NCBI GenBank assembly: GCA_051866635.1
Contig: JBJDXJ010000038.1
Location: 146,372-210,371, forward strand
DNA from: Clostridia bacterium
Lineage (GTDB): Bacteria; Bacillota; Clostridia; UMGS1883
Reading direction: 5' to 3'
Length of the DNA stretch: 64,000 bases
The notes beneath the pieces are model-generated. The model saw only the letters and a list, made by a program, of their open reading frames with translations, was not told the DNA's origin and made no database searches. Shown here piece after piece: positions 13,548-26,345 of the stretch. Within the stretch, counting starts at the first letter, position 1. Each line of letters starts with the position of its first letter. The position numbers were made by a program, and so were the translations under genes.

Positions 13548-14618
13548 ATGGAAGTTATGTCTGCAAGAGAAGCTGCTGATAAGTGGGGCATATCCCAAAG
13601 ACGTGTAGCGGTCCTCTGTTCTGAAAATAGAATAGCAAATGTTCAAATGTTAGGTAATATGTGGCTTATACCTACAAATGCAGAAAAACCTATTGACGCA
13701 AGAAGTACAAGATATAACACTACAGACGAAAAGACAGTAAAACCTTTTCTTAAATGGGCAGGTGGCAAAGGACAACTATTAAAAGAAATTGAAAGATATT
13801 ACCCTTTTAACAATGGTAATATTACAAAGTATGCGGAGCCATTTGTCGGAGGAGGTGCTGTTCTTTTTGATATTCTCAGTAAATATGATTTGGAACAGAT
13901 TTATATAAGTGATATAAATGCTGAGCTTATAAACACTTATGTTATCATAAGAGAACATATTGAGGAACTGATAGGATTATTAAGCAAATATCAAAGTGAG
14001 TATGTGCCTCTTGAAACAGAAGATAGAAAGTCATACTATATGGCAAAAAGAGTTAGATTTAATGATTTGAAAGTTAACGGCAACGAGGCTGAAAACATTG
14101 AAAAAGCAGCATTGATGATTTTTCTTAATAAAACTTGCTTCAATGGTCTGTTTAGAGTAAACAAAAAAGGTCTGTTTAATGTTCCTATGGGAGCATACAA
14201 AAATCCGCTTATCTGTGATGAAAAAAACCTTCGTGCGGTATCGGACAAACTTCAAAATGTTGAAATTGTATGTGGTGATTACAGAGAGTCGGCTGACTTT
14301 ATTGATAAAAATACATTTGTTTATTTTGATCCGCCATACAGACCTATTACTGATACCGCAAGTTTTACTGCATATACTGAGAATTTATTTAATGACGAAG
14401 AACAAATTGAACTTGCTGAATTTGTTGAATGTATGCACAAAAAAGGAGCAAAAGTAGTTGTAAGCAATTCCGATCCGAAGAATTCTAATACAGAAGATGA
14501 TTTCTTTGATAATATATATTCTGCTCATAAAATTAAGCGAGTTGAGGCTACACGAATGATTAATTGCAACAGCGAAGCAAGAGGAAAAATCAAAGAACTG
14601 CTTATATCAAATTTTTAA
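13548..14618 (+). CDS. Dam/DpnM-family m6A DNA methyltransferase with N-terminal HTH
   Basis: MSAREAADKWGIS HTH; KWAGGK, EPFVGGG, FNGLFRVN, DPPY. Confidence 0.92.
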   Translation: MEVMSAREAADKWGISQRRVAVLCSENRIANVQMLGNMWLIPTNAEKPIDARSTRYNTTDEKTVKPFLKWAGGKGQLLKEIERYYPFNNGNITKYAEPFVGGGAVLFDILSKYDLEQIYISDINAELINTYVIIREHIEELIGLLSKYQSEYVPLETEDRKSYYMAKRVRFNDLKVNGNEAENIEKAALMIFLNKTCFNGLFRVNKKGLFNVPMGAYKNPLICDEKNLRAVSDKLQNVEIVCGDYRESADFIDKNTFVYFDPPYRPITDTASFTAYTENLFNDEEQIELAEFVECMHKKGAKVVVSNSDPKNSNTEDDFFDNIYSAHKIKRVEATRMINCNSEARGKIKELLISNF

Positions 14619-14633
14619 GGAGATTTTGGACTT

Positions 14634-15170
14634 ATGATAAAGAACGGAAAAGGCTGCGGCAATACCAAAACCGGACTTGTATTTGAGGGAAAAACTGATT
14701 TGGCAACTTTCTTAAACAAACAAAAGGGGTATCGTGTTACAGATAACATTGTGTTTTATAACGATGAAAAAGTTGCTCGCATTTTTAAAAAGCATGGATT
14801 TTATAAGTTCTTGGAAGAAGTTGGGGTTGATTGGACAAAAATCATATCAAAAAAACTTCTGCCGGATGACAGTATCTATGTAATCGTGAATAATACGCTT
14901 TTTATTATCGAATGTAAGTATCAACAAGTGGCAGGCTCCGTTGATGAAAAATTACAAACTTGCGATTTTAAAAGAAAACAATATCAAAAATTGATGGCAC
15001 AACTAAATATTGATGTGGAATACATATATTTATTGTCAAATTGGTTTAAAAATCCTAAGTACAAAGATGTATTAGACTATATTATAAGTGTGCGTTGTCA
15101 GTATTACTTTGAATATATACCGCTTACAAAATTAGGTTTGCCTGTACCCAATAATGCAGAGGAGGAGTAA
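14634..15170 (+). CDS. PD-(D/E)XK nuclease-superfamily protein
   Basis: LLPDD...IIECKYQQVAGSVDEKLQ. Confidence 0.75.
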   Translation: MIKNGKGCGNTKTGLVFEGKTDLATFLNKQKGYRVTDNIVFYNDEKVARIFKKHGFYKFLEEVGVDWTKIISKKLLPDDSIYVIVNNTLFIIECKYQQVAGSVDEKLQTCDFKRKQYQKLMAQLNIDVEYIYLLSNWFKNPKYKDVLDYIISVRCQYYFEYIPLTKLGLPVPNNAEEE

Positions 15171-16034
15171 TTGATGTCAAGGGAGTTTAATACTTGGTTA
15201 TCCGAATTTCGTGACAGTATCGCAGATTACGGATATTATATAGATTTTGAAAAGGTACATAGAAATGTCGGAAATATAAAGGTTGAGCTTAATATTCTGA
15301 ACTCACTTATTGGTTCTGACAATATTGAAGATGATTTTGAAAATTTAATTAAAAAATATCCCGAAGTGTTAAAATGTATTCCATTGCTTTTGGCTGTACG
15401 GGCGAATGAGATATATGCTATTGATGGTGATGGAGCGTTTACATATAATTTTAAGAAAGCTAATCTCGACTCAGAACAGTATAAGGTGTTTATGCGTAAA
15501 ACAGGTTTGTTTGATTTAATAGCTAATCATATTGTGAACAATTTGGTTGACTATGCTACGGGCGTTGAAACAGGACTTGATTCTAATGGTCGCAAAAATC
15601 GAGGTGGACATTTAATGGAAAACTTGGTTGAAAGTTTTATTAAAAAAGCGGGATTTGTAAAAGATGAAACATACTTTAAGGAAATGTATATTCATCAGAT
15701 TACCGAGAAGTGGGGCATTGATTTATCTGCAATTTCAAATCAAGGCAAAATGGAAAAACGCTTTGATTATGTAGTTAAGACACCAAATATGATTTACGGT
15801 ATTGAAACTAATTTTTACGGCAGCGGCGGCTCAAAACTCAATGAAACTGCTCGCAGCTATAAAACACTTGCTCTTGAAACCGATACAATAGACGGATTTA
15901 CTTTTATTTGGTTTACGGACGGCAAAGGTTGGACAAATGCAAGGCACAACCTTGAAGAAACATTTGATGTTATGGAACACATTTATAATATTAATGATAT
16001 GGAAAACGAGATAATTCAAGAGGTTTTTAAATAA
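15171..16034 (+). CDS. DpnII-family type II restriction endonuclease (GATC expected)
   Basis: GVETGLDSNGRKNRGG, KRFDYV, IETNFYGSGGSKLNE, WFTDGKGW. Confidence 0.9.
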   Translation: MMSREFNTWLSEFRDSIADYGYYIDFEKVHRNVGNIKVELNILNSLIGSDNIEDDFENLIKKYPEVLKCIPLLLAVRANEIYAIDGDGAFTYNFKKANLDSEQYKVFMRKTGLFDLIANHIVNNLVDYATGVETGLDSNGRKNRGGHLMENLVESFIKKAGFVKDETYFKEMYIHQITEKWGIDLSAISNQGKMEKRFDYVVKTPNMIYGIETNFYGSGGSKLNETARSYKTLALETDTIDGFTFIWFTDGKGWTNARHNLEETFDVMEHIYNINDMENEIIQEVFK

Positions 16035-16783
16035 TGGCAGAGAAAAAAATTAAAAAATGGGAGCCTGAAGATTTTGAGCTTGAAATGACTACGCATTGGT
16101 CATTTCCAAAGCGTGGCGATTGGGCAACTCACGATGCTAAATGGCGTGGCAATTGGTCTCCATACATACCAAGAAATATTATATTAAGATATTCTCAAGA
16201 GGGAGATTTAGTTCTTGACCAATTTGCCGGGGGTGGTACTACTCTTGTTGAAGCAAAACTTTTGAATCGAGACATAATTGGTGTAGATATAAATGATGTT
16301 GCACTTGAACGCTGCAGAGAAAAAACAACATTTGATTATGAACCTGCAAAAGGTAAAGTGTATATCAAAAAAGGCGATGCAAGAAATCTTGATTTTGTAC
16401 CCGATGATAGTATTGACTTGATATGCACCCATCCACCTTATGCAGATATTATTAAGTATAGCGATGGCATAGAGGAAGATTTATCTCAATTAAAAGTTAA
16501 AGACTTTCTTGAAGAAATGAAAAAGGTTGCAACAGAGAGTTATCGTGTGCTTAAAAAGGACAGGTTTTGTGCTGTTCTTATGGGCGATACAAGGCAAAAA
16601 GGATGTATGATACCGATGTCGTTTGAGGTTATGAAAATTTTTCAAGACGCAGGATTTAGACTTAAAGAACTTATAATAAAAGAACAGCATAATTGCAGGG
16701 CAACAGGATATTGGAAAACAAATAGTGTGAAATATAATTTTTTGCTGATTGCACACGAGTATTTGTTTGTATTTAGAAAGTAA
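16034..16783 (+). CDS. Second DNA amino-methyltransferase
   Basis: DQFAGGGTT SAM-binding motif, HPPY motif; coupled to REase. Confidence 0.85.
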   Translation: MAEKKIKKWEPEDFELEMTTHWSFPKRGDWATHDAKWRGNWSPYIPRNIILRYSQEGDLVLDQFAGGGTTLVEAKLLNRDIIGVDINDVALERCREKTTFDYEPAKGKVYIKKGDARNLDFVPDDSIDLICTHPPYADIIKYSDGIEEDLSQLKVKDFLEEMKKVATESYRVLKKDRFCAVLMGDTRQKGCMIPMSFEVMKIFQDAGFRLKELIIKEQHNCRATGYWKTNSVKYNFLLIAHEYLFVFRK

Positions 16784-16795
16784 GGAGGATTTTGA

Positions 16796-17782
16796 ATGGG
16801 AGCAACAGAAATTGTTCAAGCATTAGTGTCTCCAACAGAAAAATTAATAGATGCTGTATCAGGAGCTATAGGGAAAGCATATGAACCTCGCCATGTCAGA
16901 AAAATGGCGGAAGCAAAATCTTATGAACTAAAATTAATTGCAGATACAGTTCGTAATAATAGCGATGTACCAATAGTATACGATTCAACTGGTGTTGTTA
17001 TTGACACAAGCAATTATGAGGAAATTGCAAAAAGAGCTTCATGTCGCTTGGCATTTCAAGAAATTACAAAGCAGCAAAATATTGAATCAATTGCCGACAA
17101 AGCTTATGAAGAACTAGAAAATTCTGATTCTGTAAGCAATGTACCCGTGAGTCAAGATTGGATGTCTCGTTTCTTTAACTCAGTCGAAGATATTAGTGAC
17201 GATAAGATGCAAGAAGTTTGGGCACATATTTTAGCGAGTGAAATCAAGACACCTAATACATATTCATATCGAACTATTGACAAACTTAAGAATATGACTC
17301 GAAATGAAGCAGAATTATTTCAAAGAGTTGCGGGACTTTCAATGCGAGGCGGTAGTGTATATTTCATACTTTCCGATAAAGAACTTCTTAATAGTTATGG
17401 TGTTTACTTCAGTGAGCTTCTTTCGCTTGAAGAGTGCGGTCTAATCTCTACACAAAGTTTGACTTTTAAGATTGAAGCATCAGAAAAACAACCAGGACAT
17501 TTAATGACTGATAAATATATAGGTTTTATTCGTGGCCGAGAAACAGATAAGATACAAGAATTTAAGTTAAATATATATGTGTTTACAGAGAGTGGTAAAC
17601 AGCTAATTAATGCAATACACCCACAAACGGACGATAAGTATTTTATTGACTGCATGCAAAAAATTCACCAAGAGCACAGTAGTTTCTCTGTTGCAGTTCA
17701 CAGAATCAATTATATTACTGACGATGGTAGAATAAATTATAATGATGTCGATATTCTTTCTACAATAAATAATGTTGGTTAA
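16796..17782 (+). CDS. DUF2806-like protein
   Basis: QQNIESI..A, DWMSRFFNSVEDISDDKMQEVWAHILASE..PNTYS. Confidence 0.75.
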   Translation: MGATEIVQALVSPTEKLIDAVSGAIGKAYEPRHVRKMAEAKSYELKLIADTVRNNSDVPIVYDSTGVVIDTSNYEEIAKRASCRLAFQEITKQQNIESIADKAYEELENSDSVSNVPVSQDWMSRFFNSVEDISDDKMQEVWAHILASEIKTPNTYSYRTIDKLKNMTRNEAELFQRVAGLSMRGGSVYFILSDKELLNSYGVYFSELLSLEECGLISTQSLTFKIEASEKQPGHLMTDKYIGFIRGRETDKIQEFKLNIYVFTESGKQLINAIHPQTDDKYFIDCMQKIHQEHSSFSVAVHRINYITDDGRINYNDVDILSTINNVG

Positions 17783-17952
17783 ATCAAAATTGCTATGATT
17801 AAATACTTTGATTAGCATTTCATTTAAAAATTTTTTGAGTACATTTTGAGTACAAAAACTTTCGCAAAAGAAATCACGACACAGGAATTCGTAAAATTTA
17901 AGGAATGTAATTATGCAAAATCAAGGAAAAACACCTTGATTAACTTCCCATA

Positions 17953-17986
17953 AATCGAGTGGGTATAATATAATGGGGTTTTAAAG
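17953..17986 (+). repeat. attR-like copy of guaA 3' end
   Basis: aatcgagtgggtataatataatggggttttaaag. Confidence 0.85.
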
Positions 17987-18148
17987 AGGCTGTAAAATGT
18001 CTCTTAGTAAATAAGTTAAGACCATTTGGGACAGTCCCCCTTATGGCAAATTGGGCGACAATTTGCCAAAGAAACCTTGCGAGGTTTTGTTGGGACAGTC
18101 CCGAAATGGTCTTTTTGTTATCTCAGTGTGGACTTTTTTTACAGCCAC
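17986..18148. mobile_element. About 165-bp MITE-like structured repeat, copy 1
   Basis: Ends gaggctgtaaaa / ttttacagccac; near identical to 32895-33059. Confidence 0.75.
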
Positions 18149-18301
18149 TTTTTATGTTTAGTTTTCTTTGAAACCTAACGTGTTTAAAACTGTTGTCGCA
18201 TTTTCCCATTGTTATGGGAATGTTTTACGCATTTGAAATCGGTAGGATTTGTTTAGGAACAGCACAATGAAAATAAATGTAAAGATTTTTTCATTTTTCT
18301 G

Positions 18302-18330
18302 TTGACAAGATAAAAAATTGGTGCTACAAT
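18302..18330 (+). promoter_or_regulatory. sigmaA promoter of Met/Cys transport operon
   Basis: TTGACA-17 bp-(TG)cTACAAT. Confidence 0.8.
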
Positions 18331-18378
18331 ACAACCAATCTAAACAGTAGGTAAATAATAAGAAAGGGGAGAGCGTGC

Positions 18379-18519
18379 ATGACAAGATTTTATAGAAACG
18401 GCACAATGATAATGATGTGTATGTGTATCTGTATGTGTTCTTGGTGTATGCATATGGCTTTTTTGTATATTTATACGATATGTTCTCCCTTTAGGATAAA
18501 ACATTGTGTCACATTGTAA
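18379..18519 (+). CDS. Putative Met/Cys-rich leader peptide (46 aa)
   Basis: RBS aaagggga; MTRFYRNGTMIMMCMCICMCSWCMHMAFLYIYTICSPFRIKHCVTL*. Confidence 0.75.
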   Translation: MTRFYRNGTMIMMCMCICMCSWCMHMAFLYIYTICSPFRIKHCVTL

Positions 18520-18539
18520 AAATGTGGAATAACGCTTTT

Positions 18540-18580
18540 AAACCGGGAAACTTATCGAAAGTTTTCCGGTTTATTATATT
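18540..18580 (+). terminator. Attenuator-like intrinsic terminator in leader
   Basis: aaccgggaaact-tatcgaa-agttttccggtt followed by tattatatt. Confidence 0.65.
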
Positions 18581-18709
18581 AAGAGGTGAAAGGCATGAAA
18601 TTGTATTTTGAAAAGCTCGTCAGAGCAAATTACAGGTTCGGGCGAATGTGACAGTAATATTTTAAGGAAAAAATATTATAAATTTATAAATTAAAGGAGA
18701 TTTACTGTC

Positions 18710-19564
18710 ATGAAAAAAATAACATCAACTATACTTAAATTATTACTTACACTTGCCATTGCAATTTCCTTTGCAGGTTGCGGAAAAAATTCAGACAAAA
18801 TTACAATTGCAGTACCAAACGACACAACAAACGAAGCGAGAGCGTTGCTCCTTCTGGAGGATTTGGGCTACATAAAGCTTAAAGAAGGCGCCACTATTAC
18901 AGCTACAATTCTTGATGTGGAAGAAAATCCCTATAACATAAACTTTAAAGAAGTAGAGGCCGCACAGCTTCCAAATACACTTAAGGATGTTGACTATGCC
19001 GTAATAAATTCAAACTATGCCATTGAAGCAGGACTTAATCCCACGAAAGATGCTCTTGGTATTGAAGGTTCATCATCATCTTACAGCAATATCCTTGCTG
19101 TAAAACAGGGAAACGAAAACACCGATATTGTGAAAGCTCTTGTTGCGGCTCTTGAAAGTGAAGACGTAACAAATTTCATTAGAAATGAATATGATGGTGC
19201 AGTGGTATCTGTAGTTGATAATCCCACTGACGGTTATGACACATCTGTAGACTATGATTTATTGGCAGGAAAAACAGTTAAGGTTGCCGCATCGCCTACA
19301 CCTCATGCGGAAATATTGTCAGTTGTGAAGAACATTCTGGCAAAGAAAGAAATTAATCTTGAAATTATCGAATTCACCGACTATGTTCAGCCCAACAACG
19401 TGGTAGAAAGCGGCGAGGTTGACGCAAATTACTTCCAGCATGTGCCGTATCTTGATGATTTTAATAAGGAAAACGGAACCCATATTGTATCTGTGGCGGC
19501 TATCCATGTGGAGCCTATCGGAATTTATGGGGGAAAACAAAAAGCCCTCGATGAAATAAAATAA
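18710..19564 (+). CDS. metQ: MetQ/NlpA methionine-binding lipoprotein (circularly permuted)
   Basis: Lipobox FAGC; IAVPNDTTNEARAL; ASPTPHAEIL..FTDYVQPN..DANYFQH. Confidence 0.88.
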   Translation: MKKITSTILKLLLTLAIAISFAGCGKNSDKITIAVPNDTTNEARALLLLEDLGYIKLKEGATITATILDVEENPYNINFKEVEAAQLPNTLKDVDYAVINSNYAIEAGLNPTKDALGIEGSSSSYSNILAVKQGNENTDIVKALVAALESEDVTNFIRNEYDGAVVSVVDNPTDGYDTSVDYDLLAGKTVKVAASPTPHAEILSVVKNILAKKEINLEIIEFTDYVQPNNVVESGEVDANYFQHVPYLDDFNKENGTHIVSVAAIHVEPIGIYGGKQKALDEIK

Positions 19565-19578
19565 TACCGGAGATAAGT

Positions 19579-20592
19579 ATGATTGAAATAAAAAATGTAT
19601 CCAAAACTTTTAACACCGCAGAAGGAAAGGTTGAGGCTTTAAAAAATGTGTCTCTGACCATTCCCGACGGAGATATCTTTGGAATTATAGGCATGAGTGG
19701 AGCCGGGAAAAGCACCCTTGTGCGGTGTATAAATATGCTGGAGCGACCGACTGAAGGCAGCTGTATAATAGACGGATGCGACATAGGGAAGCTGAATGAA
19801 AAAGAGCTTAGAAATGTTCGCCGCGAAATTACAATGATATTTCAGGGATTCAATCTTTTAATGCAGAAAAACTGTCTTAAAAATGTGTGCTTTCCCTTGG
19901 AATTGGCAGGTGTAAAAAAAGCAGAAGCCAAAAAGAGGGCACTTGAACTTTTGGAAATTGTAGGTCTTAGCGATAAAGCCAAGGCGTACCCCTCCGAGCT
20001 TTCAGGCGGTCAACAGCAGAGAGTTGCCATTGCACGTGCTCTTGCCACAAACCCAAAGGTTTTACTTTGTGATGAAGCTACCAGTGCACTTGACCCTCAA
20101 ACCACAAATTCAATTCTGGATTTAATCCGCAGTATTAACCAAAAGCTTGGTATTACGGTAATTATTATAACCCACCAGATGAGCGTTGTGGAAAATATAT
20201 GTAAGCATGTGGCTATTTTAGACGGGGGATGTGTTGTGGAGCAAGGTGAGGTTACAGAGGTTTTTACACACCCCAAATCAAAGGCGGCACAAAGTCTTGT
20301 TTTCCCTGAGGGAGATATAAATTCCACTTTGGTGAAAAATCCGGGCGAAAGGTTTATCCGTGTTGTTTTTAGCGGAACTGATGCAACCGGGACACCGCTT
20401 ATTGCCCATATGGCAACAAAAAAAGGCATAGAGGCAAATATTGCTTATGCTTCAACAAAAAGCATTAACGGAAAGGCTTACGGGTCTATGCTGTTGGGCA
20501 TTTCGGGAGATGACAGCAAGGTAAATGAGGCGATTGATTATTTAACCAAAGCTTCCGGAGTTATTGCAGAGGAGGTGCAAAAGGATGAATAA
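19579..20592 (+). CDS. metN: Methionine ABC transporter ATPase with NIL domain
   Basis: GMSGAGKST, LSGGQQQRV, LLCDEATSALDP. Confidence 0.92.
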   Translation: MIEIKNVSKTFNTAEGKVEALKNVSLTIPDGDIFGIIGMSGAGKSTLVRCINMLERPTEGSCIIDGCDIGKLNEKELRNVRREITMIFQGFNLLMQKNCLKNVCFPLELAGVKKAEAKKRALELLEIVGLSDKAKAYPSELSGGQQQRVAIARALATNPKVLLCDEATSALDPQTTNSILDLIRSINQKLGITVIIITHQMSVVENICKHVAILDGGCVVEQGEVTEVFTHPKSKAAQSLVFPEGDINSTLVKNPGERFIRVVFSGTDATGTPLIAHMATKKGIEANIAYASTKSINGKAYGSMLLGISGDDSKVNEAIDYLTKASGVIAEEVQKDE

Positions 20593-21298
20593 CGGTATTT
20601 TCTCTGCTGAAGTATTGGCAGAAACATGGCAGATTTTAAAGATGCAGTTTCCCCTTGCAATATGGGAGACAGTTTATGTAACTGTTCTGGCAACTTTATT
20701 TGCTGTTATCATTGGGCTTCCCTTGGGCATTTTACTTGTTGTAGGCGAGAAAAAGGGCGTTTTGCCCCTTCCTTCTTGGATTATGCAAGCTTTGAATGCT
20801 ATTATAAACCTCTTAAGGTCTGTTCCGTTTCTAATTTTGATGATTTTGGTTTTTCCCCTTACCAGGCTAATTGTGGGAACGGTTGTGGGTACCGTGGCAT
20901 CTATTGTCCCCCTTGTTATAGCGGCATTTCCATTTGTGGCGAGACTTGCGGAAAGCAGTTTAAGAGAGGTTAACCCCAACACCATCGAAATGGCACAAAG
21001 CATGGGTGCATCACCGTTACAGATTATTGTAAAAGTAATGATACCTGAGAGTATGCCCTCACTTATATCAAACGGTGCAATTGCAATTACCACCATTTTG
21101 GGCTACAGTGCAATGAGTGGTATCATAGGCGGCGGTGGACTTGGAAAAATTGCCATAAACTACGGTTATTACAGATATAAATATCTGATTATGCTCATAG
21201 CGGTTGCTTTGCTGATTGTTATTGTACAGATATTCCAGAGCATAGGAACCTCTCTGGCGGCAAAGTCAGATAAGAGACTGAAAAACAAATCGACATAA
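20585..21298 (+). CDS. metI: Methionine ABC permease
   Basis: NLLRSVPFLIL, GYSAMSGIIGGGGLG; start ATG 20585. Confidence 0.92.
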   Translation: MNNGIFSAEVLAETWQILKMQFPLAIWETVYVTVLATLFAVIIGLPLGILLVVGEKKGVLPLPSWIMQALNAIINLLRSVPFLILMILVFPLTRLIVGTVVGTVASIVPLVIAAFPFVARLAESSLREVNPNTIEMAQSMGASPLQIIVKVMIPESMPSLISNGAIAITTILGYSAMSGIIGGGGLGKIAINYGYYRYKYLIMLIAVALLIVIVQIFQSIGTSLAAKSDKRLKNKST

Positions 21299-21316: not shown

Positions 21317-21982
21317 ATGCAGCTGAATTTGGATTTTTGCATGAAGTATTTACCCTTGTATATTGACGGGGCAAAATTGACTGTGCGGATTGCTTTTTTT
21401 GGAATTGCCATAGCTTTGGTTATAGGTATAATTTGTGCCATAGCGAAATATTACCGTGTACCTGCTTTGGAAAAAGTTATTTCTGTCTATATTGAGTTAA
21501 GCCGCAACACACCCCTTCTGGTTCAGCTGTTCTTTTTATACTTTGGTCTTCCGAAAGCCGGGATTTGTTTAAGTGCGGAAACCTGTGCCGTGGTGGGGTT
21601 GGCATTTTTAGGCGGCAGTTATATGGCAGAGAGTGTAAGAAGCGGATTGGAGTCTGTTGACAAAGTACAGCTTGAATCGGCACAAAGTCTTGGATTGTCA
21701 CCTTATCTTACAATGAAAGAAGTAATTCTCCCTCAGGCGTTGGCTGTATCTGTTCCCGGCATATGTGCAAATGTGATTTTTTTAATTAAGGAAACCTCGG
21801 TTGTAAGTGCAATTGCCCTTGCAGACCTTATGTATGTGACAAAAGATTTAATCGGCTTATATTATGAAACAGACGAAGCTTTAATTATGCTTGTTATTTT
21901 TTACCTGATTATTCTTCTGCCTGTTTCGGCTATAGCCTTGCTTTTGGAGAGGAGGTTTAGGTATGCCGGATTTGGGCATTAA
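21317..21982 (+). CDS. Polar amino acid ABC permease
   Basis: RNTPLLVQLFFLYFG, EAA-like loop, KETS. Confidence 0.9.
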   Translation: MQLNLDFCMKYLPLYIDGAKLTVRIAFFGIAIALVIGIICAIAKYYRVPALEKVISVYIELSRNTPLLVQLFFLYFGLPKAGICLSAETCAVVGLAFLGGSYMAESVRSGLESVDKVQLESAQSLGLSPYLTMKEVILPQALAVSVPGICANVIFLIKETSVVSAIALADLMYVTKDLIGLYYETDEALIMLVIFYLIILLPVSAIALLLERRFRYAGFGH

Positions 21983-22637
21983 TGTAATTTTCATGGGAAA
22001 TAATTTTTTGAGGTTACTGGGCGGACTTTGGGTAACTGTGAAAATAAGCCTTCTGGCTGTTATTATATCTGTTCCTTTAGGCATACTTTTTGGAATGTTT
22101 ATGACACTTAAAAACCCGCTTTGCAAAGCTGTAAGCAGATTTTATCTGGAGTTTATACGCATTATGCCACAACTTGTTTTACTCTTTATAGCCTATTTTG
22201 GTGTTACGAGGGCATTTGGAATAAACCTTTCAGCAGAATTCAGTGCAATTTTAGTGTTTACCCTTTGGGGAACGGCTGAAATGGGAGATTTGGTACGCGG
22301 TGCCCTTATAAGCATACCAAAGCACCAATATGACAGTGCTTTTGCCCTTGGTATGACTTCGGTGCAGACATTTGTATATATAGTTATTCCTCAGACAATA
22401 AGGCGTCTTATTCCCCTTACCATTAACCTTACAACAAGAATGATTAAAACAACGAGCCTTGTTGTTTTGATAGGTATAACGGAGGTTTTAAAGGTGGGAA
22501 AGCAGATTATAGACGCAAATCGTTTTGAATACCCTACAGCGGTATTGTGGGTATACGGCGTGATATTTCTTTTATATTTTCTTGCCTGTTGGCCCATTTC
22601 TGTTCTGGCAAAGAAATTGGAAAAAATCTGGGGGTGA
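21963..22637 (+). CDS. Polar amino acid ABC permease
   Basis: RIMPQLVLL, AEMGDLVRG, IKTTSL. Confidence 0.9.
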   Translation: MPDLGINVIFMGNNFLRLLGGLWVTVKISLLAVIISVPLGILFGMFMTLKNPLCKAVSRFYLEFIRIMPQLVLLFIAYFGVTRAFGINLSAEFSAILVFTLWGTAEMGDLVRGALISIPKHQYDSAFALGMTSVQTFVYIVIPQTIRRLIPLTINLTTRMIKTTSLVVLIGITEVLKVGKQIIDANRFEYPTAVLWVYGVIFLLYFLACWPISVLAKKLEKIWG

Positions 22638-22643
22638 TTGTAG

Positions 22644-23408
22644 GTGGAGAATAAAATTCAGCTTAAAATAACAAACCTTATTAAACGCTTTGGTGAAGAA
22701 ACAGTCCTTGACGGCATTGATTTAACTGTTCATAAAGGTGAAGTTGTGGTTGTTTTAGGCCCGTCGGGCTGTGGCAAAAGCACACTTTTACGCTGTATAA
22801 ACGGCTTAGAGAAATTAAGCGAGGGGGAAATCTTTCTGGGCGGTGAAAAGGTTAATGCAGAAAGCAAAGAAATAACAAGACTCAGACAAAAAATAGGCAT
22901 GGTTTTTCAAAGCTACGAGTTATTTCCCCATAAAAATATTATGGATAACATAACATTGGCACCTATAAAGGTCCAGAAACGCTCACGTGCAGATGCGGAA
23001 AAAGAGGCGGAAATCCTTTTAAAGCGGGTGGGTTTATGGGAAAAGAGAAAAGCCTATCCAAGAGAATTGTCAGGGGGACAAAAACAGCGTGCGGCAATTG
23101 TAAGGGCACTTTGTATGAACCCTGAGGTTATGCTCTTTGATGAAGTGACAGCCGCCCTTGACCCGGCAATGGTACATGAGGTTTTAGAGGTTATGATAGA
23201 GCTGGCAAAAAAGGGTATGACAATGGTAATTGTAACCCATGAAATGCAGTTTGCAAGGGCCATTGCTGACAGAATTGTTTTTCTGGAAAACGGAAAAATT
23301 GCCGAAGAAGCAGACCCTGAAGAATTTTTTACAAACCCGAAAACAGAGCTTGCAAAGGATTTTCTCTATACCTTTGCATATGAAAACCGCAGAATTAATA
23401 AGAATTAA
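22644..23408 (+). CDS. Polar amino acid ABC ATPase
   Basis: [27 protein letters not shown]. Confidence 0.92.
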
Positions 23409-23437
23409 TACTAATCTTAAGAAAGAAGGAATTTTTT

Positions 23438-24295
23438 ATGAAAACGAGAAAGGGTATTATAGGATTAATTGCCTTAGCACTGACTGCCATAGTTTTAATA
23501 TTCACTATTTCAGGGTGCGGAAAAAATGAGAAAAGTGCAGCTTCTTTTCGTTCTGTTGATGAAATTAAAGAAAGCGGAAAAATTGTAATTGGCGTATTCA
23601 GCGATAAAGCACCCTTCGGCTACGTTGATGAAAACGGAAAGTATCAGGGATATGATATTTATTTTGCAGAACGCATTGCAAAGGATTTGGGAGTTAGGGT
23701 TGAATATGTTTCCACAGACCCTGCCAGCCGTGTTGAATATGTGGCAACAGGTAAGGTTGATATCATCCTTGCAAACTTTACCGTAACGGAGGAGAGAGCA
23801 AAGCAAGTGGATTTTGCCCTTCCTTACATGAAGGTAATGCTTGGTGTCGTTTCTCCTGAGGACAATATTGTCAGAAATGTAAATGACCTTGTGGGCAAGA
23901 AACTTATTGTTGTTAAGGGTACAACGGCTGAAACATATTTTGAAAAAAATCACCCGGAGATAGAGCTTCAGAAATATGACGAATATGCAGATGCTTACAA
24001 CGCACTTCTTGACGGACGAGGAGACGCATTCTCAACAGATAATACAGAGGTGCTTGCGTGGGCACTTTCAAATCCCGGCTTTACTGTAGGCATTGATGCA
24101 CTTGGCAACGCCGATACAATTGCACCTGCTGTCCAAAAGGGAAATACAACACTTCTTGAATGGATAAATGCCGAAATTGAAAGGCTTGGTGAAGAAAATT
24201 TCTTCCACGAAGACTATGAAGAAACCTTAAAACCCGTATACGGCGATGCGGCAGACCCCGAAGCTTTGGTTGTAGAAGGCGGAAATGTAGATTAA
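23438..24295 (+). CDS. Cysteine/amino acid-binding lipoprotein (CjaA-like)
   Basis: Lipobox ISGC; GVFSDKAPFGYVD, ILANFTVT, DFALPYMKV. Confidence 0.85.
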   Translation: MKTRKGIIGLIALALTAIVLIFTISGCGKNEKSAASFRSVDEIKESGKIVIGVFSDKAPFGYVDENGKYQGYDIYFAERIAKDLGVRVEYVSTDPASRVEYVATGKVDIILANFTVTEERAKQVDFALPYMKVMLGVVSPEDNIVRNVNDLVGKKLIVVKGTTAETYFEKNHPEIELQKYDEYADAYNALLDGRGDAFSTDNTEVLAWALSNPGFTVGIDALGNADTIAPAVQKGNTTLLEWINAEIERLGEENFFHEDYEETLKPVYGDAADPEALVVEGGNVD

Positions 24296-24299
24296 AATA

Positions 24300-24334
24300 A
24301 AAGACTCCTGTGCAAAAATTGCACGGGAGTTTTT
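24300..24334 (+). terminator. Intrinsic terminator
   Basis: gactcctgtgcaa-aaa-ttgcacgggagtttttg. Confidence 0.7.
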
Positions 24335-24345
24335 GTGGAATTTAA

Positions 24346-25278
24346 ATGGAGGACAAGACAATGACCGTTCGTGAAGTTCAGGAGGAAATTCTGAGAATAA
24401 AGAAGGAAAAAAATATTTGTATTCTTGCCCATGCGTATCAAAGTCAGGATATATGGGATGTTGCCGATTATGTGGGGGATTCCTTTGGGTTAAGCCAACA
24501 AGCGGCTTTGACAAAAGCTTCGGTGGTTATTATGTGCGGTGTGCGGTTTATGGCAGAAACAGTGAAAATTCTATCCCCTGAAAAGAAGGTTATTCTGGCA
24601 AATGGCACAGCAGGCTGTCCTATGGCAGAGCAGATGGACACAGATTTGATTTTACAGCTTAAACAAAGCTTCCCCGACTACACGGTGGTAGGGTATATAA
24701 ATACAACCGCAGAGCTGAAAACAATATGCGATGTTTGTGTAACAAGTTCATCTGCACTTAAGATTATAAAAAACATTGAAAACGATAAAATACTTTTTAT
24801 ACCTGACTGCAATTTAGGGCATTGGATTTCAAAACAAGTCCCCGAAAAAACAATAAAGCTTATAAGCGGTGGATGTCCAACCCATTTAAGAATTACAAAA
24901 CATGATGTGGAAAAGGCACGAAATCTTTATCCTAAAGCACTTATGCTTGTGCATCCGGAATGTCACCCTACTGTTGTTGAAAAGGCGGATTTTGTGGGCA
25001 GTACAACGGAAATAACAGACTTTGCGGTAAACAGCCTTGGCACGGAATTTATTATCGGCACAGAAAACAGTATTGTGGAGCATTTGCAGTTTTTGTGCGA
25101 GGACAAGAAGTTTGTGCCCTTGTCTAAGGACTGTGTATGCCACAATATGAAAGCCACAACACTGGTGGATGTATATAATTCTGTTAAAGGCTTAGGTGGC
25201 GAAGAAATAAATCTTTCGGAGGATGTTATCAGCAAGGCAGTTAGGTGTATAGATGAAATGATGAGGTTGGGAAAATGA
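24346..25278 (+). CDS. nadA: Quinolinate synthase
   Basis: LAHAYQ, GDS, CGVRFMAE, AGCPMA, HPEC, C-x-NMK. Confidence 0.92.
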   Translation: MEDKTMTVREVQEEILRIKKEKNICILAHAYQSQDIWDVADYVGDSFGLSQQAALTKASVVIMCGVRFMAETVKILSPEKKVILANGTAGCPMAEQMDTDLILQLKQSFPDYTVVGYINTTAELKTICDVCVTSSSALKIIKNIENDKILFIPDCNLGHWISKQVPEKTIKLISGGCPTHLRITKHDVEKARNLYPKALMLVHPECHPTVVEKADFVGSTTEITDFAVNSLGTEFIIGTENSIVEHLQFLCEDKKFVPLSKDCVCHNMKATTLVDVYNSVKGLGGEEINLSEDVISKAVRCIDEMMRLGK

Positions 25279-26345
25279 GTAAAGCTTTGATTGCAATGAG
25301 TGGAGGAGTGGACTCCAGTGTTGCATCTTGCCTGATGGCAGAAAAAGGGTTTGATTGTATGGGCGTGACAATGAAACTGTTTCACAATGAGGATATAGGT
25401 CTGTCAAGGGAACATAGTTGCTGTTCTTTGGAGGATGTGGAAGACGCAAGAAGTGTGGCATATAGCTTGGGCATGCCATATTATGTCTTTAACTTTACCA
25501 ATCGCTTTCGTGAATGTGTAATAGATAAATTTGTACAGGCATATGAAAACGGTATTACGCCAAATCCCTGTATCGACTGTAACAGATATCTGAAATTTGA
25601 CAAGCTTTTTTGGCGTATGAAGGAGCTTGATTATGATTATGTTGTAACAGGTCATTATGCCCGTATTGAATATGATTCTGCTACGGACAGGTATTTGTTA
25701 AAGAAGGCCATTGACAATGATAAAGACCAAAGCTATGTGCTTTATACAATGACACAGGAACAGTTAAAACATACTTTGTTCCCTCTCGGAGAATTGACAA
25801 AGCCAAAGGTTCGGGAAATAGCAAAAAAACACAGATTTATCAATGCCGATAAGCGCGACAGCCAGGATATTTGTTTTGTGACAAATGGAAAATACACTGA
25901 TTTTATAAAACAATATACTTCAAAAGATTATCCCGAAGGTGACTTTGTGGATATGAACGGGAAAATTTTAGGTACGCATAAAGGGATAATCCATTATACA
26001 ATCGGACAACGCAAAGGATTGAATATTTCAGCCGGCGTTCCTCTGTATGTTTGTGACATCAACGCAAAAGAGAACAAAGTCATACTTGGCACAGAAAATG
26101 AACTGTATCGAAAAGAACTTGTTGCAAAAGATATAAATATGATTTCTGTTCCTTGTATAGAAAAGCCTGTAAGACTGCAAGTAAAAGTGCGTTACCGCCA
26201 TCCTATGCAGTGGGCGACTGTGACACAAATGGATAGCGATGTTTTAAAAATTGAATTTGATGAACCTCAAAAGGCTATTACAAAAGGGCAATCTGTTGTT
26301 CTGTACGATAACGACATTGTCGTTGGCGGTGGAATAATACAGTAA
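25275..26345 (+). CDS. mnmA: tRNA 2-thiouridylase
   Basis: AMSGGVDSSV, TPNPCIDCN, TGHYA, KDQSY, DSQDICF. Confidence 0.95.
   Translation: MSKALIAMSGGVDSSVASCLMAEKGFDCMGVTMKLFHNEDIGLSREHSCCSLEDVEDARSVAYSLGMPYYVFNFTNRFRECVIDKFVQAYENGITPNPCIDCNRYLKFDKLFWRMKELDYDYVVTGHYARIEYDSATDRYLLKKAIDNDKDQSYVLYTMTQEQLKHTLFPLGELTKPKVREIAKKHRFINADKRDSQDICFVTNGKYTDFIKQYTSKDYPEGDFVDMNGKILGTHKGIIHYTIGQRKGLNISAGVPLYVCDINAKENKVILGTENELYRKELVAKDINMISVPCIEKPVRLQVKVRYRHPMQWATVTQMDSDVLKIEFDEPQKAITKGQSVVLYDNDIVVGGGIIQ

Follow-up and report, generated by a model that had tools for sequence, protein, structure and literature searches.

The operon for a methionine transporter (metQNI) and a second amino acid ABC system in a Clostridia bacterium is very probably controlled by a ribosome-mediated transcription attenuator, which would read charged elongator tRNA-Met and probably also charged tRNA-Cys. 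The analysed stretch of DNA, here called the window, comprises 64,000 nt of contig JBJDXJ010000038.1 (forward-strand positions 146,372-210,371), and all coordinates refer to it. The attenuator reading is supported because the leader is conserved, has a dedicated terminator and a covarying alternative pairing, contains no riboswitch and is replaced in related operons by Met-responsive elements. The original prediction was a dual sensor of Met and Cys, based on ribosome stalling; stalling is supported by the present analysis, and the predicted sensing of Met is better supported than that of Cys, of which we are less sure.

The layout of the leader and its operon is given in Table 1; from promoter and SD it continues through about 9 spacer codons, a codon block with Met first and Cys after it, segment 2 and the stop to the terminator. 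The consensus promoter, the RBS with its 46-aa ORF, the accumulation of Met and Cys in codons 10-26 and the terminator hairpin had all been claimed from the letters of the window, and all are recovered, the hairpin with a T-rich tail. The promoter has TTGACA at 18302-18307, a spacer of 17 nt and TG followed by TACAAT with its end at 18330, and it is the best-scoring among nine sites in 17800-19000; most homologous leaders are preceded by similar promoters, as judged by eye. The Shine-Dalgarno (SD) sequence upstream of the leader ORF is purine-rich. A DNA profile search of the window finds no second copy of the leader, and the cysK gene of the window is without a Met/Cys leader of this kind.

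Table 1. Features of the attenuator and its operon, in window coordinates
Feature	Position	Strand	Remark
Sigma-A type promoter, extended -10	18302..18330	+	11/12 consensus matches plus TG
ACCWA-N9-TWGGT palindrome over presumed transcription start	18334..18352	.	candidate repressor operator
Leader SD = segment 1 (anti-antiterminator arm)	18364..18374	+	pairs with 18482-18492
Leader ORF, 46 codons	18379..18519	+	related ORFs at 40 loci
Sensing block, codons 10-26, 7 Met + 5 Cys	18406..18456	+	codon count
Segment 2	18475..18492	+	pairs with SD (1:2) or terminator (2:3, antiterminator)
Intrinsic terminator hairpin (3:4), U-rich tail	18539..18581	+	hairpin 18539-18573, 15 pairs
Second SD (18583-18589) and 18-codon uORF2 (18595-18651)	18583..18651	+	end CGA-ATG-TGA, conserved peptide core
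metQ lipoprotein	18710..19564	+	circularly permuted relative to solved MetQ chains
metN and metI	19579..21298	+	best family matches
Polar amino acid ABC system: 2 permeases, ATPase, binding protein	21317..24295	+	probably cysteine
Hairpin, candidate operon end before nadA-mnmA	24299..24333	+	-22.6 kcal/mol

The downstream genes had been described as metQNI and a cysteine-type ABC system, and both are found, with the qualification that MetQ, MetN and MetI are best family matches which remain below the equivalog cut-offs, and that cysteine is only the probable ligand. In solved MetQ-family chains, the C-terminal half corresponds to residues 32-166 of this MetQ and the N-terminal half to residues 187-283, a permutation noted for the MetQ family of the related loci as well. 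The best PDB matches of the ABC binding protein are 1xt8 (E 3e-80) and 2yjp (1e-78), followed by the next at 9e-40; we take both to be cysteine receptors, and the predicted substrate of the system is probably cysteine. The hairpin behind it probably ends the operon. The gene mnmA, for a tRNA 2-thiouridylase and thus a sulfur consumer, comes after the operon in the window (24346-26345) as well as in the related loci L001, L010, L014 and L022; in the window, nadA and the hairpin separate the operon from it. On the other side of the leader, short palindromes of the TTGGGACAGTCCC type are repeated at 18025-18105 between the upstream gene and the promoter, and one of them scores as a hairpin. Further upstream, 13548-17782 holds a type II restriction-modification-like cluster, with two ORFs which we take from their motifs to be methylase-like, and a TIGR03899-like gene below cut-off.

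Relatives of the operon were gathered by a genome scan with MetQ and without the leader as query, which means that the leader counts are not circular. It yielded 480 relatives; the best 80 of them, mostly from Clostridia metagenome-assembled genomes, were kept (designated by L and a number). Their upstream regions were filtered for ORFs of 12-60 aa that are preceded by an SD, contain five or more Met/Cys in 12 codons and lie within 500 nt of metQ. Among the best 80 of the 480 relatives, 78 loci have enough upstream sequence and 40 of these pass, including a few ORFs of the uORF2 kind described below (e.g., L039 and L079), to be compared with 2 of 717 control genes in the same loci; the leader-locus counts are not independent trials, because the relatives share ancestry on the MetQ tree. 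One of the two control passes is a true leader, before the O-acetylhomoserine (OAH) sulfhydrylase gene that heads the operon of L001, and the leader of L024 stands before cysK. The conservation of Met/Cys codons upstream of homologous operons, on which the original prediction had proposed to be judged, is borne out by these counts. On a quick MetQ tree, the distribution of the leader takes 9 changes, vs 20.8 with shuffled labels, and the leader may have a single origin on this tree.

A profile of 30 leader peptides retrieves 99 clusters at 50% identity (E<=1e-3), and the Met/Cys criterion holds for 99 of 99; some of these clusters are the input sequences themselves, and they are known as peptides without genomic context. 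A word-based protein search with a single leader peptide as query gave no candidate, and blastn of 18290-18720 against plasmids and phages gave weak partial matches (best E ~0.03), none of which, among the matches listed, spans the leader. When the DNA profile search is extended to further loci, the only extra match is in the truncated L080. Judged from sequence comparison, the leader family is real and conserved, and it generalises beyond the window.

Several loci deviate from the common pattern. In L014, about 240-120 nt before metQ, a promoter is followed by a terminator-like hairpin (-13.5 kcal/mol), with no leader ORF, and then by uORF2; this may be a natural deletion or an assembly artefact. 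That the orphan terminator has been weakened was considered and rejected, with -13.5 vs -14.5 kcal/mol in L001. The leaders of L037, L050, L052, L053, L058, L059 and L068 have a Thr-rich run followed by a short Met/Cys block, and would possibly sense threonine as well. The MetQ loci of L052 and L078, whose bins carry the titles Bacteroidaceae and Sphaerochaetaceae, hardly differ from those of Clostridia, which may reflect recent transfer or mis-binning. The ACCWA-N9-TWGGT palindrome is seen in the window, L001, L010, L022, L014, L043 and L077, often in two copies, at the -35 and at the start site. With at most one mismatch and at most 110 nt from the start it is present in 13 of 41 leaders, vs 0.006 expected per 110 nt, and it is a possible, predicted repressor operator.

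The structural analysis concerns 41 full leaders, which were hand-picked from the window and 40 loci with the truncated L080 excluded. Folding places a terminator-like hairpin after the stop codon in 41 of 41, and the energy of that in the window is -18.4 kcal/mol. The minimum free energy (MFE) of the window leader has z = -4.15, with 0 of 200 shuffles as stable, and in this structure 18482-18492 is paired with the SD at 18364-18374, in agreement with the earlier remark that ttctcccttt (18483) is complementary to the leader RBS region. The antiterminator role of 18475-18492, and likewise the second SD-led ORF at 18595-18651, are absent from the original prediction. The partner of segment 2 in the 2:3 pairing is the terminator 5' arm 18545-18551 together with the loop 18554-18557. 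In the window, the 1:2 duplex of -20.5 kcal/mol is equalled by 0 of 60 shuffles and the 2:3 duplex of -14.0 kcal/mol by 2 of 60. Over the whole set, the best 1:2 and the best 2:3 duplexes share a segment in 38 of 41 leaders, and the mean 2:3 energy is -16.2 kcal/mol for cognate vs -12.6 kcal/mol for non-cognate pairs, while duplexes that beat all but 3 of 60 shuffles are obtained in only 23 of 41 leaders for 2:3 and 28 of 41 for 1:2.

Covariation was evaluated on 35 of the 41 rows, aligned by sequence only; six divergent rows were excluded. Here, the 2:3 pairing is 77.6% paired with a covariation of 0.311 and the 1:2 pairing is 73.8% paired with a covariation of 0.371; both values are reached by 0 of 500 shuffles and exceed six slid registers, controls that are not to be read as probabilities. 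The tested pairs come from a single row, L022, and the rows are related. Of five pair-count measures in this alignment, two fail to exceed the shuffles. For one subfamily the alignment is off by three columns, an error that works to the disadvantage of the structure. L032, L024 and L020 show double-sided changes in the loop helix. Applied to the same alignment, RNAalifold yields no more than 7 pairs of the terminator, in line with what alternative structures and a gappy alignment would give. Segment 2 occurs in all three frames relative to the leader start (19/7/6 among the 32 of 41 leaders matched by a motif regex), from which it follows that the RNA, and not the peptide, is conserved beyond the sensing block; in the window, it is frame-shifted relative to the neighbour L001 and most homologues. 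The antiterminator is weak or absent in 5 of 41 leaders (L056, L071, L072, L075 and L078), and in the divergent L071, L072, L075 and L078 a different 12-bp complement, found by eye, overlaps the start of the terminator arm. On these comparisons, the predicted antiterminator is conserved and mutually exclusive with the terminator.

Consider now how such a leader would work when amino acids are plentiful. The ribosome would run through the leader ORF and, in most homologues, cover segment 2 when it arrives at the stop codon, which is at most 15 nt from segment 2 in 31 of 41 leaders (the classical geometry). In the window, the stop lies 26 nt past segment 2, and its shut-off must therefore rely on 1:2 re-forming, i.e., segment 2 would be released and pair back with the leader SD. 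The terminator 5' arm would then be free, and transcription would stop near 18575-18580. When amino acids are short, the ribosome would instead stall in the sensing block, between the SD and segment 2. The 1:2 helix would then be prevented, either sterically or by a second ribosome on the SD, and segment 2 would capture the emerging terminator 5' arm and loop, upon which RNA polymerase would read through. A leader that is not translated would be off by default. In 34 of 41 leaders the best 12-codon block starts at codon 7-14, and a spacer of 7-14 codons is about one ribosome footprint, a length compatible with queueing that does not demonstrate it; the three leaders that start Met-Met-Met would need no queue. 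There are also points against the attenuator. A lack of Met might reduce translation initiation at the leader too, and L014 retains promoter and terminator-like hairpin without a leader ORF.

Folding models define more closely what the switch would require. The early intermediate is the transcript before the terminator has been transcribed, and the later intermediate is the transcript that ends just past the terminator loop. The 1:2 helix forms in 35 of 41 early intermediates (0.97 in the window, and 0.99 for the re-forming on which its shut-off would rely), and it persists in 38 of 41 when the stalled footprint alone is masked. With a ribosome in mid-block and the SD blocked, 35 of 41 leaders have 2:3 above 0.5 in the later intermediate; with a ribosome at the stop, 5 of 41 do. 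When only the stalled footprint is masked, 2:3 is obtained in 18 of 41 vs 16 of 41 without a ribosome. From this follows that footprint masking alone fails to switch the model, and that an extra, putative steric or queueing step would be required. In the later intermediate of the window, 2:3 is favoured in every state, the stop included (0.93-0.99). At equilibrium of the full leader, the complete terminator prevails in every simulated state (39-41 of 41) and antitermination is never seen in any of them, which means that antitermination must be kinetic. The folding of alternative structures, suggested as a check in the original prediction, supports the mutually exclusive pairings, but not the switching between them unless the SD is also blocked.

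That neither an S-box nor a T-box consensus is visible had been claimed for the window, and an Rfam scan agrees. Rfam was run on 25 of the 80 loci. Nothing in the window reaches the gathering score, and in 17780-18760 there are only five weak, unrelated matches with E 0.3-9. Neither the SAM-I riboswitch (S-box, RF00162) nor the T-box leader (RF00230) has a match in the window or in the 10 leader loci scanned; the SAM-I model does match elsewhere in L069. T-boxes are found directly before metQ in three non-leader loci (L018, L040 and L069), with AUG at the apparent specifier when read by eye. The palindrome TATAG-N7-CTATA, which we take to be the LysR Met-box, is present in 0 of 41 leader loci vs 23 of 39 others, and some of these loci adjoin a LysR gene. 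By motif, orthologous operons that lack the leader carry Met-box-like palindromes or apparent AUG-specifier T-boxes instead.

The same attenuator could sense methionine only, with the Cys codons originating from a near self-complementary AUG-UGC-AUG that builds an inner hairpin. The T-boxes that replace the leader read AUG, just one Cys is present in 2 of 41 leaders, and in the folded leader of the window inner hairpins arise from the block, all of which would be expected if Met alone were sensed. Against this stands the composition of the 41 leaders, where Met is 8.0-fold and Cys 6.3-fold enriched, with every other residue at most 1.5-fold. Both Cys codons are used, TGC:TGT being 61:34 vs a genomic 946:471, and this nearness to the genomic ratio suggests that the amino acid rather than the triplet is selected; in the sensing block of the window, all Cys codons are TGT. 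The number of Cys codons per leader is 4.1 in operons with Cys genes vs 2.9 in the others (7 vs 34; p 0.012, uncorrected for kinship), but within the clade the association has p 0.14 and is not significant, which again favours Met alone. In 34 of 39 leaders Cys comes later than Met. Taken together, a methionine-only attenuator appears unlikely.

Readings without a stalling ribosome fare worse. If an RNA-binding protein or a metabolite, in the latter case through an undescribed riboswitch, were to recognise repeated AUGUG-like motifs, the ORF would be incidental. The AUGUG repeats in block, segment 2 and uORF2 and the default fold, which terminates, suit this view, but internal ATG triplets are locked in frame (260 of 301 in the 41 leaders), L020, L045 and L049 have Met-only runs without AUGUG, and the SD is retained at start-codon spacing. 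Since there is, in addition, no Rfam match and no conserved aptamer-like fold, RNAalifold giving the terminator only, such recognition is very improbable. The 46-aa product might also function as a small metal-binding (Cu/Ag) protein, or as a metal-dependent arrest peptide: Met/Cys-rich peptides bind soft metals, and related peptides are called as proteins, namely the 99 clusters. Cys spacing is, however, not fixed, frameshifts occur directly after the sensing block, the downstream genes are for Met/Cys uptake and synthesis, regulators of Met type take the place of the leader, and no NCBIfam family exists for the peptide, so that a metal function is hardly credible. There remains chance, i.e., a low-complexity TG/AT repeat next to an ordinary terminator. 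The block is TG-rich, but its 12 Met/Cys in 17 codons contrast with a maximum of 9 in 60 order-3 Markov simulations of the window, and the runner-up among the 17-codon stretches of the 64 kb, with all six frames considered, has only 7. With the excess over control genes, the shuffle-tested pairings and the covariation added to this, the probability of mere coincidence is almost nil.

Downstream of the putative attenuator, uORF2 is placed between terminator and metQ behind a strong SD, and a peptide pattern finds its relatives in 23 loci. For codons 8-16, there are 850 synonymous vs 389 non-synonymous pairwise differences in 22 aligned copies, a set selected by peptide pattern and hence biased towards synonymy, though not towards CGA. 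At codons 17-18, 22 of 22 copies read CGA-ATG, and CGA makes up 6.6% of the Arg codons in these loci. Of 106 copies of the motif CGAATGT(G/A) in 2.56 Mb, both strands included, 44 lie at most 500 nt from metQ, distributed over 38 of 80 loci, and an SD-led ORF shares the frame of 41 of these 44. The uORF2 core is found in 24 database peptides, and uORF2 stands behind attenuators, Met-boxes and a T-box (L018) alike. The spacer between uORF2 and metQ is A-rich, with no obvious hairpin, and by eye no conserved pairing partner is seen for the uORF2 motif. As in arrest peptides of the TnaC/SpeFL type, the peptide is conserved through synonymous change and its length is fixed. uORF2 is probably a separate, post-transcriptional and Met-responsive layer of control. 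Tentatively, a stall at CGA-AUG, to which the rare CGA and the nascent peptide would both add sharpness, might change the lifetime of the downstream mRNA. In L077, a Treponema metagenome-assembled genome, a uORF2-like peptide (1062-1142) ends in a Met-Ser-Ser-Cys-Cys-Cys run and precedes a second, unrelated metNIQ operon, the promoter of which has the ACCWA-N9-TWGGT palindrome in two copies.

The attenuator and uORF2 can be combined into a two-stage sensor of sulfur amino acids in gut Clostridia that uses ribosomes only, a scheme that we consider somewhat doubtful. In its first stage, a queued ribosome that occupies the leader SD, behind one stalled on Met/Cys codons, would be the switch. In its second stage, the 18-codon uORF would act as a module behind attenuator, T-box or Met-box, where the conserved nascent peptide and CGA-AUG would cause a Met- or SAM-dependent arrest, without an RNA hairpin, and this arrest would control the fate of the downstream mRNA.

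Met and Cys genes of Firmicutes are expected to be controlled by S-boxes, T-boxes or LysR factors, and a translated leader appears to take their place at roughly half of the nearest metQ loci that were sampled in gut Clostridia. S-box, Met T-box and LysR Met-box have the same target operon and signal, but no translated sensor. The leader family is invisible to Rfam and NCBIfam, and it could serve as an annotation handle for sulfur-metabolism genes in uncultured gut bacteria. It also offers a testable case of a dual Met/Cys sensor and of attenuation by an amino acid that also starts translation, and uORF2 is a candidate for a new kind of uORF. Leader-peptide attenuators are established for the trp, his, thr, ilv and phe operons of enterobacteria, with dual sensing in thr and ilv, and in E. 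coli pheA and trp a distal leader segment sequesters the SD. In common with these classical cases, the Clostridia leader has a short SD-led ORF, a run of cognate codons, an alternative pairing and an intrinsic terminator. It is unlike them in that its codons are for Met and Cys, where an S-box or T-box would be the expected route in Clostridia, in that the anti-antiterminator arm is the leader SD and not the sensing codons, in that the antiterminator includes the terminator loop, and in that a second uORF follows.

In the main texts of openly accessible articles no description of such an element in Clostridia was found, and the leader family is apparently undescribed. Several relatives in function have been described. 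His leaders take the place of T-boxes in bacilli (PMC2965389). In Streptomyces lividans, metL before metNIQ is a short ORF that ends in a Met/Cys/Arg run; the transporter is the same and the R-M-C ending resembles the ends of uORF2, but metL is leaderless, no intrinsic terminator was found, it has been presented solely as a leader for Met (and Thr), and the relevant text contains no structure model or test (PMC8079986). In Campylobacter jejuni, a MetL is predicted before metBA (PMC3847290); translation initiation has been detected, and there is CJsORF19, a sORF rich in Met that precedes the gene of a Met-binding protein (PMC11955535). These Campylobacter leaders share Met codons and a short terminated RNA with the Clostridia case, but they have three Met codons and no Cys block, occur in only a few Campylobacter species, and have a mechanism that, in the accessible text, is proposed only (PMC3847290, PMC11955535). 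Polycysteine leaderless sORFs of mycobacteria are translational attenuators (10.1101/834739; PMC1262725), where Cys codons sense Cys-tRNA as proposed here, but they respond to Cys only and act translationally, without a terminator (10.1101/834739). Sensing of Cys-tRNA is also shared by uORFC-8-2 of Rhodobacterales, which has two Cys codons before cysS and is for Cys only (PMC8632094). The accessible part of PMC7903761 holds nothing relevant. The novelty is accordingly narrower than a lack of precedent, since Met leaders are already predicted in Campylobacter and Streptomyces; what appears new with respect to known attenuators is the predicted sensing of Met together with Cys, a protective arm that is formed by the SD of the leader itself, and the second conserved uORF.
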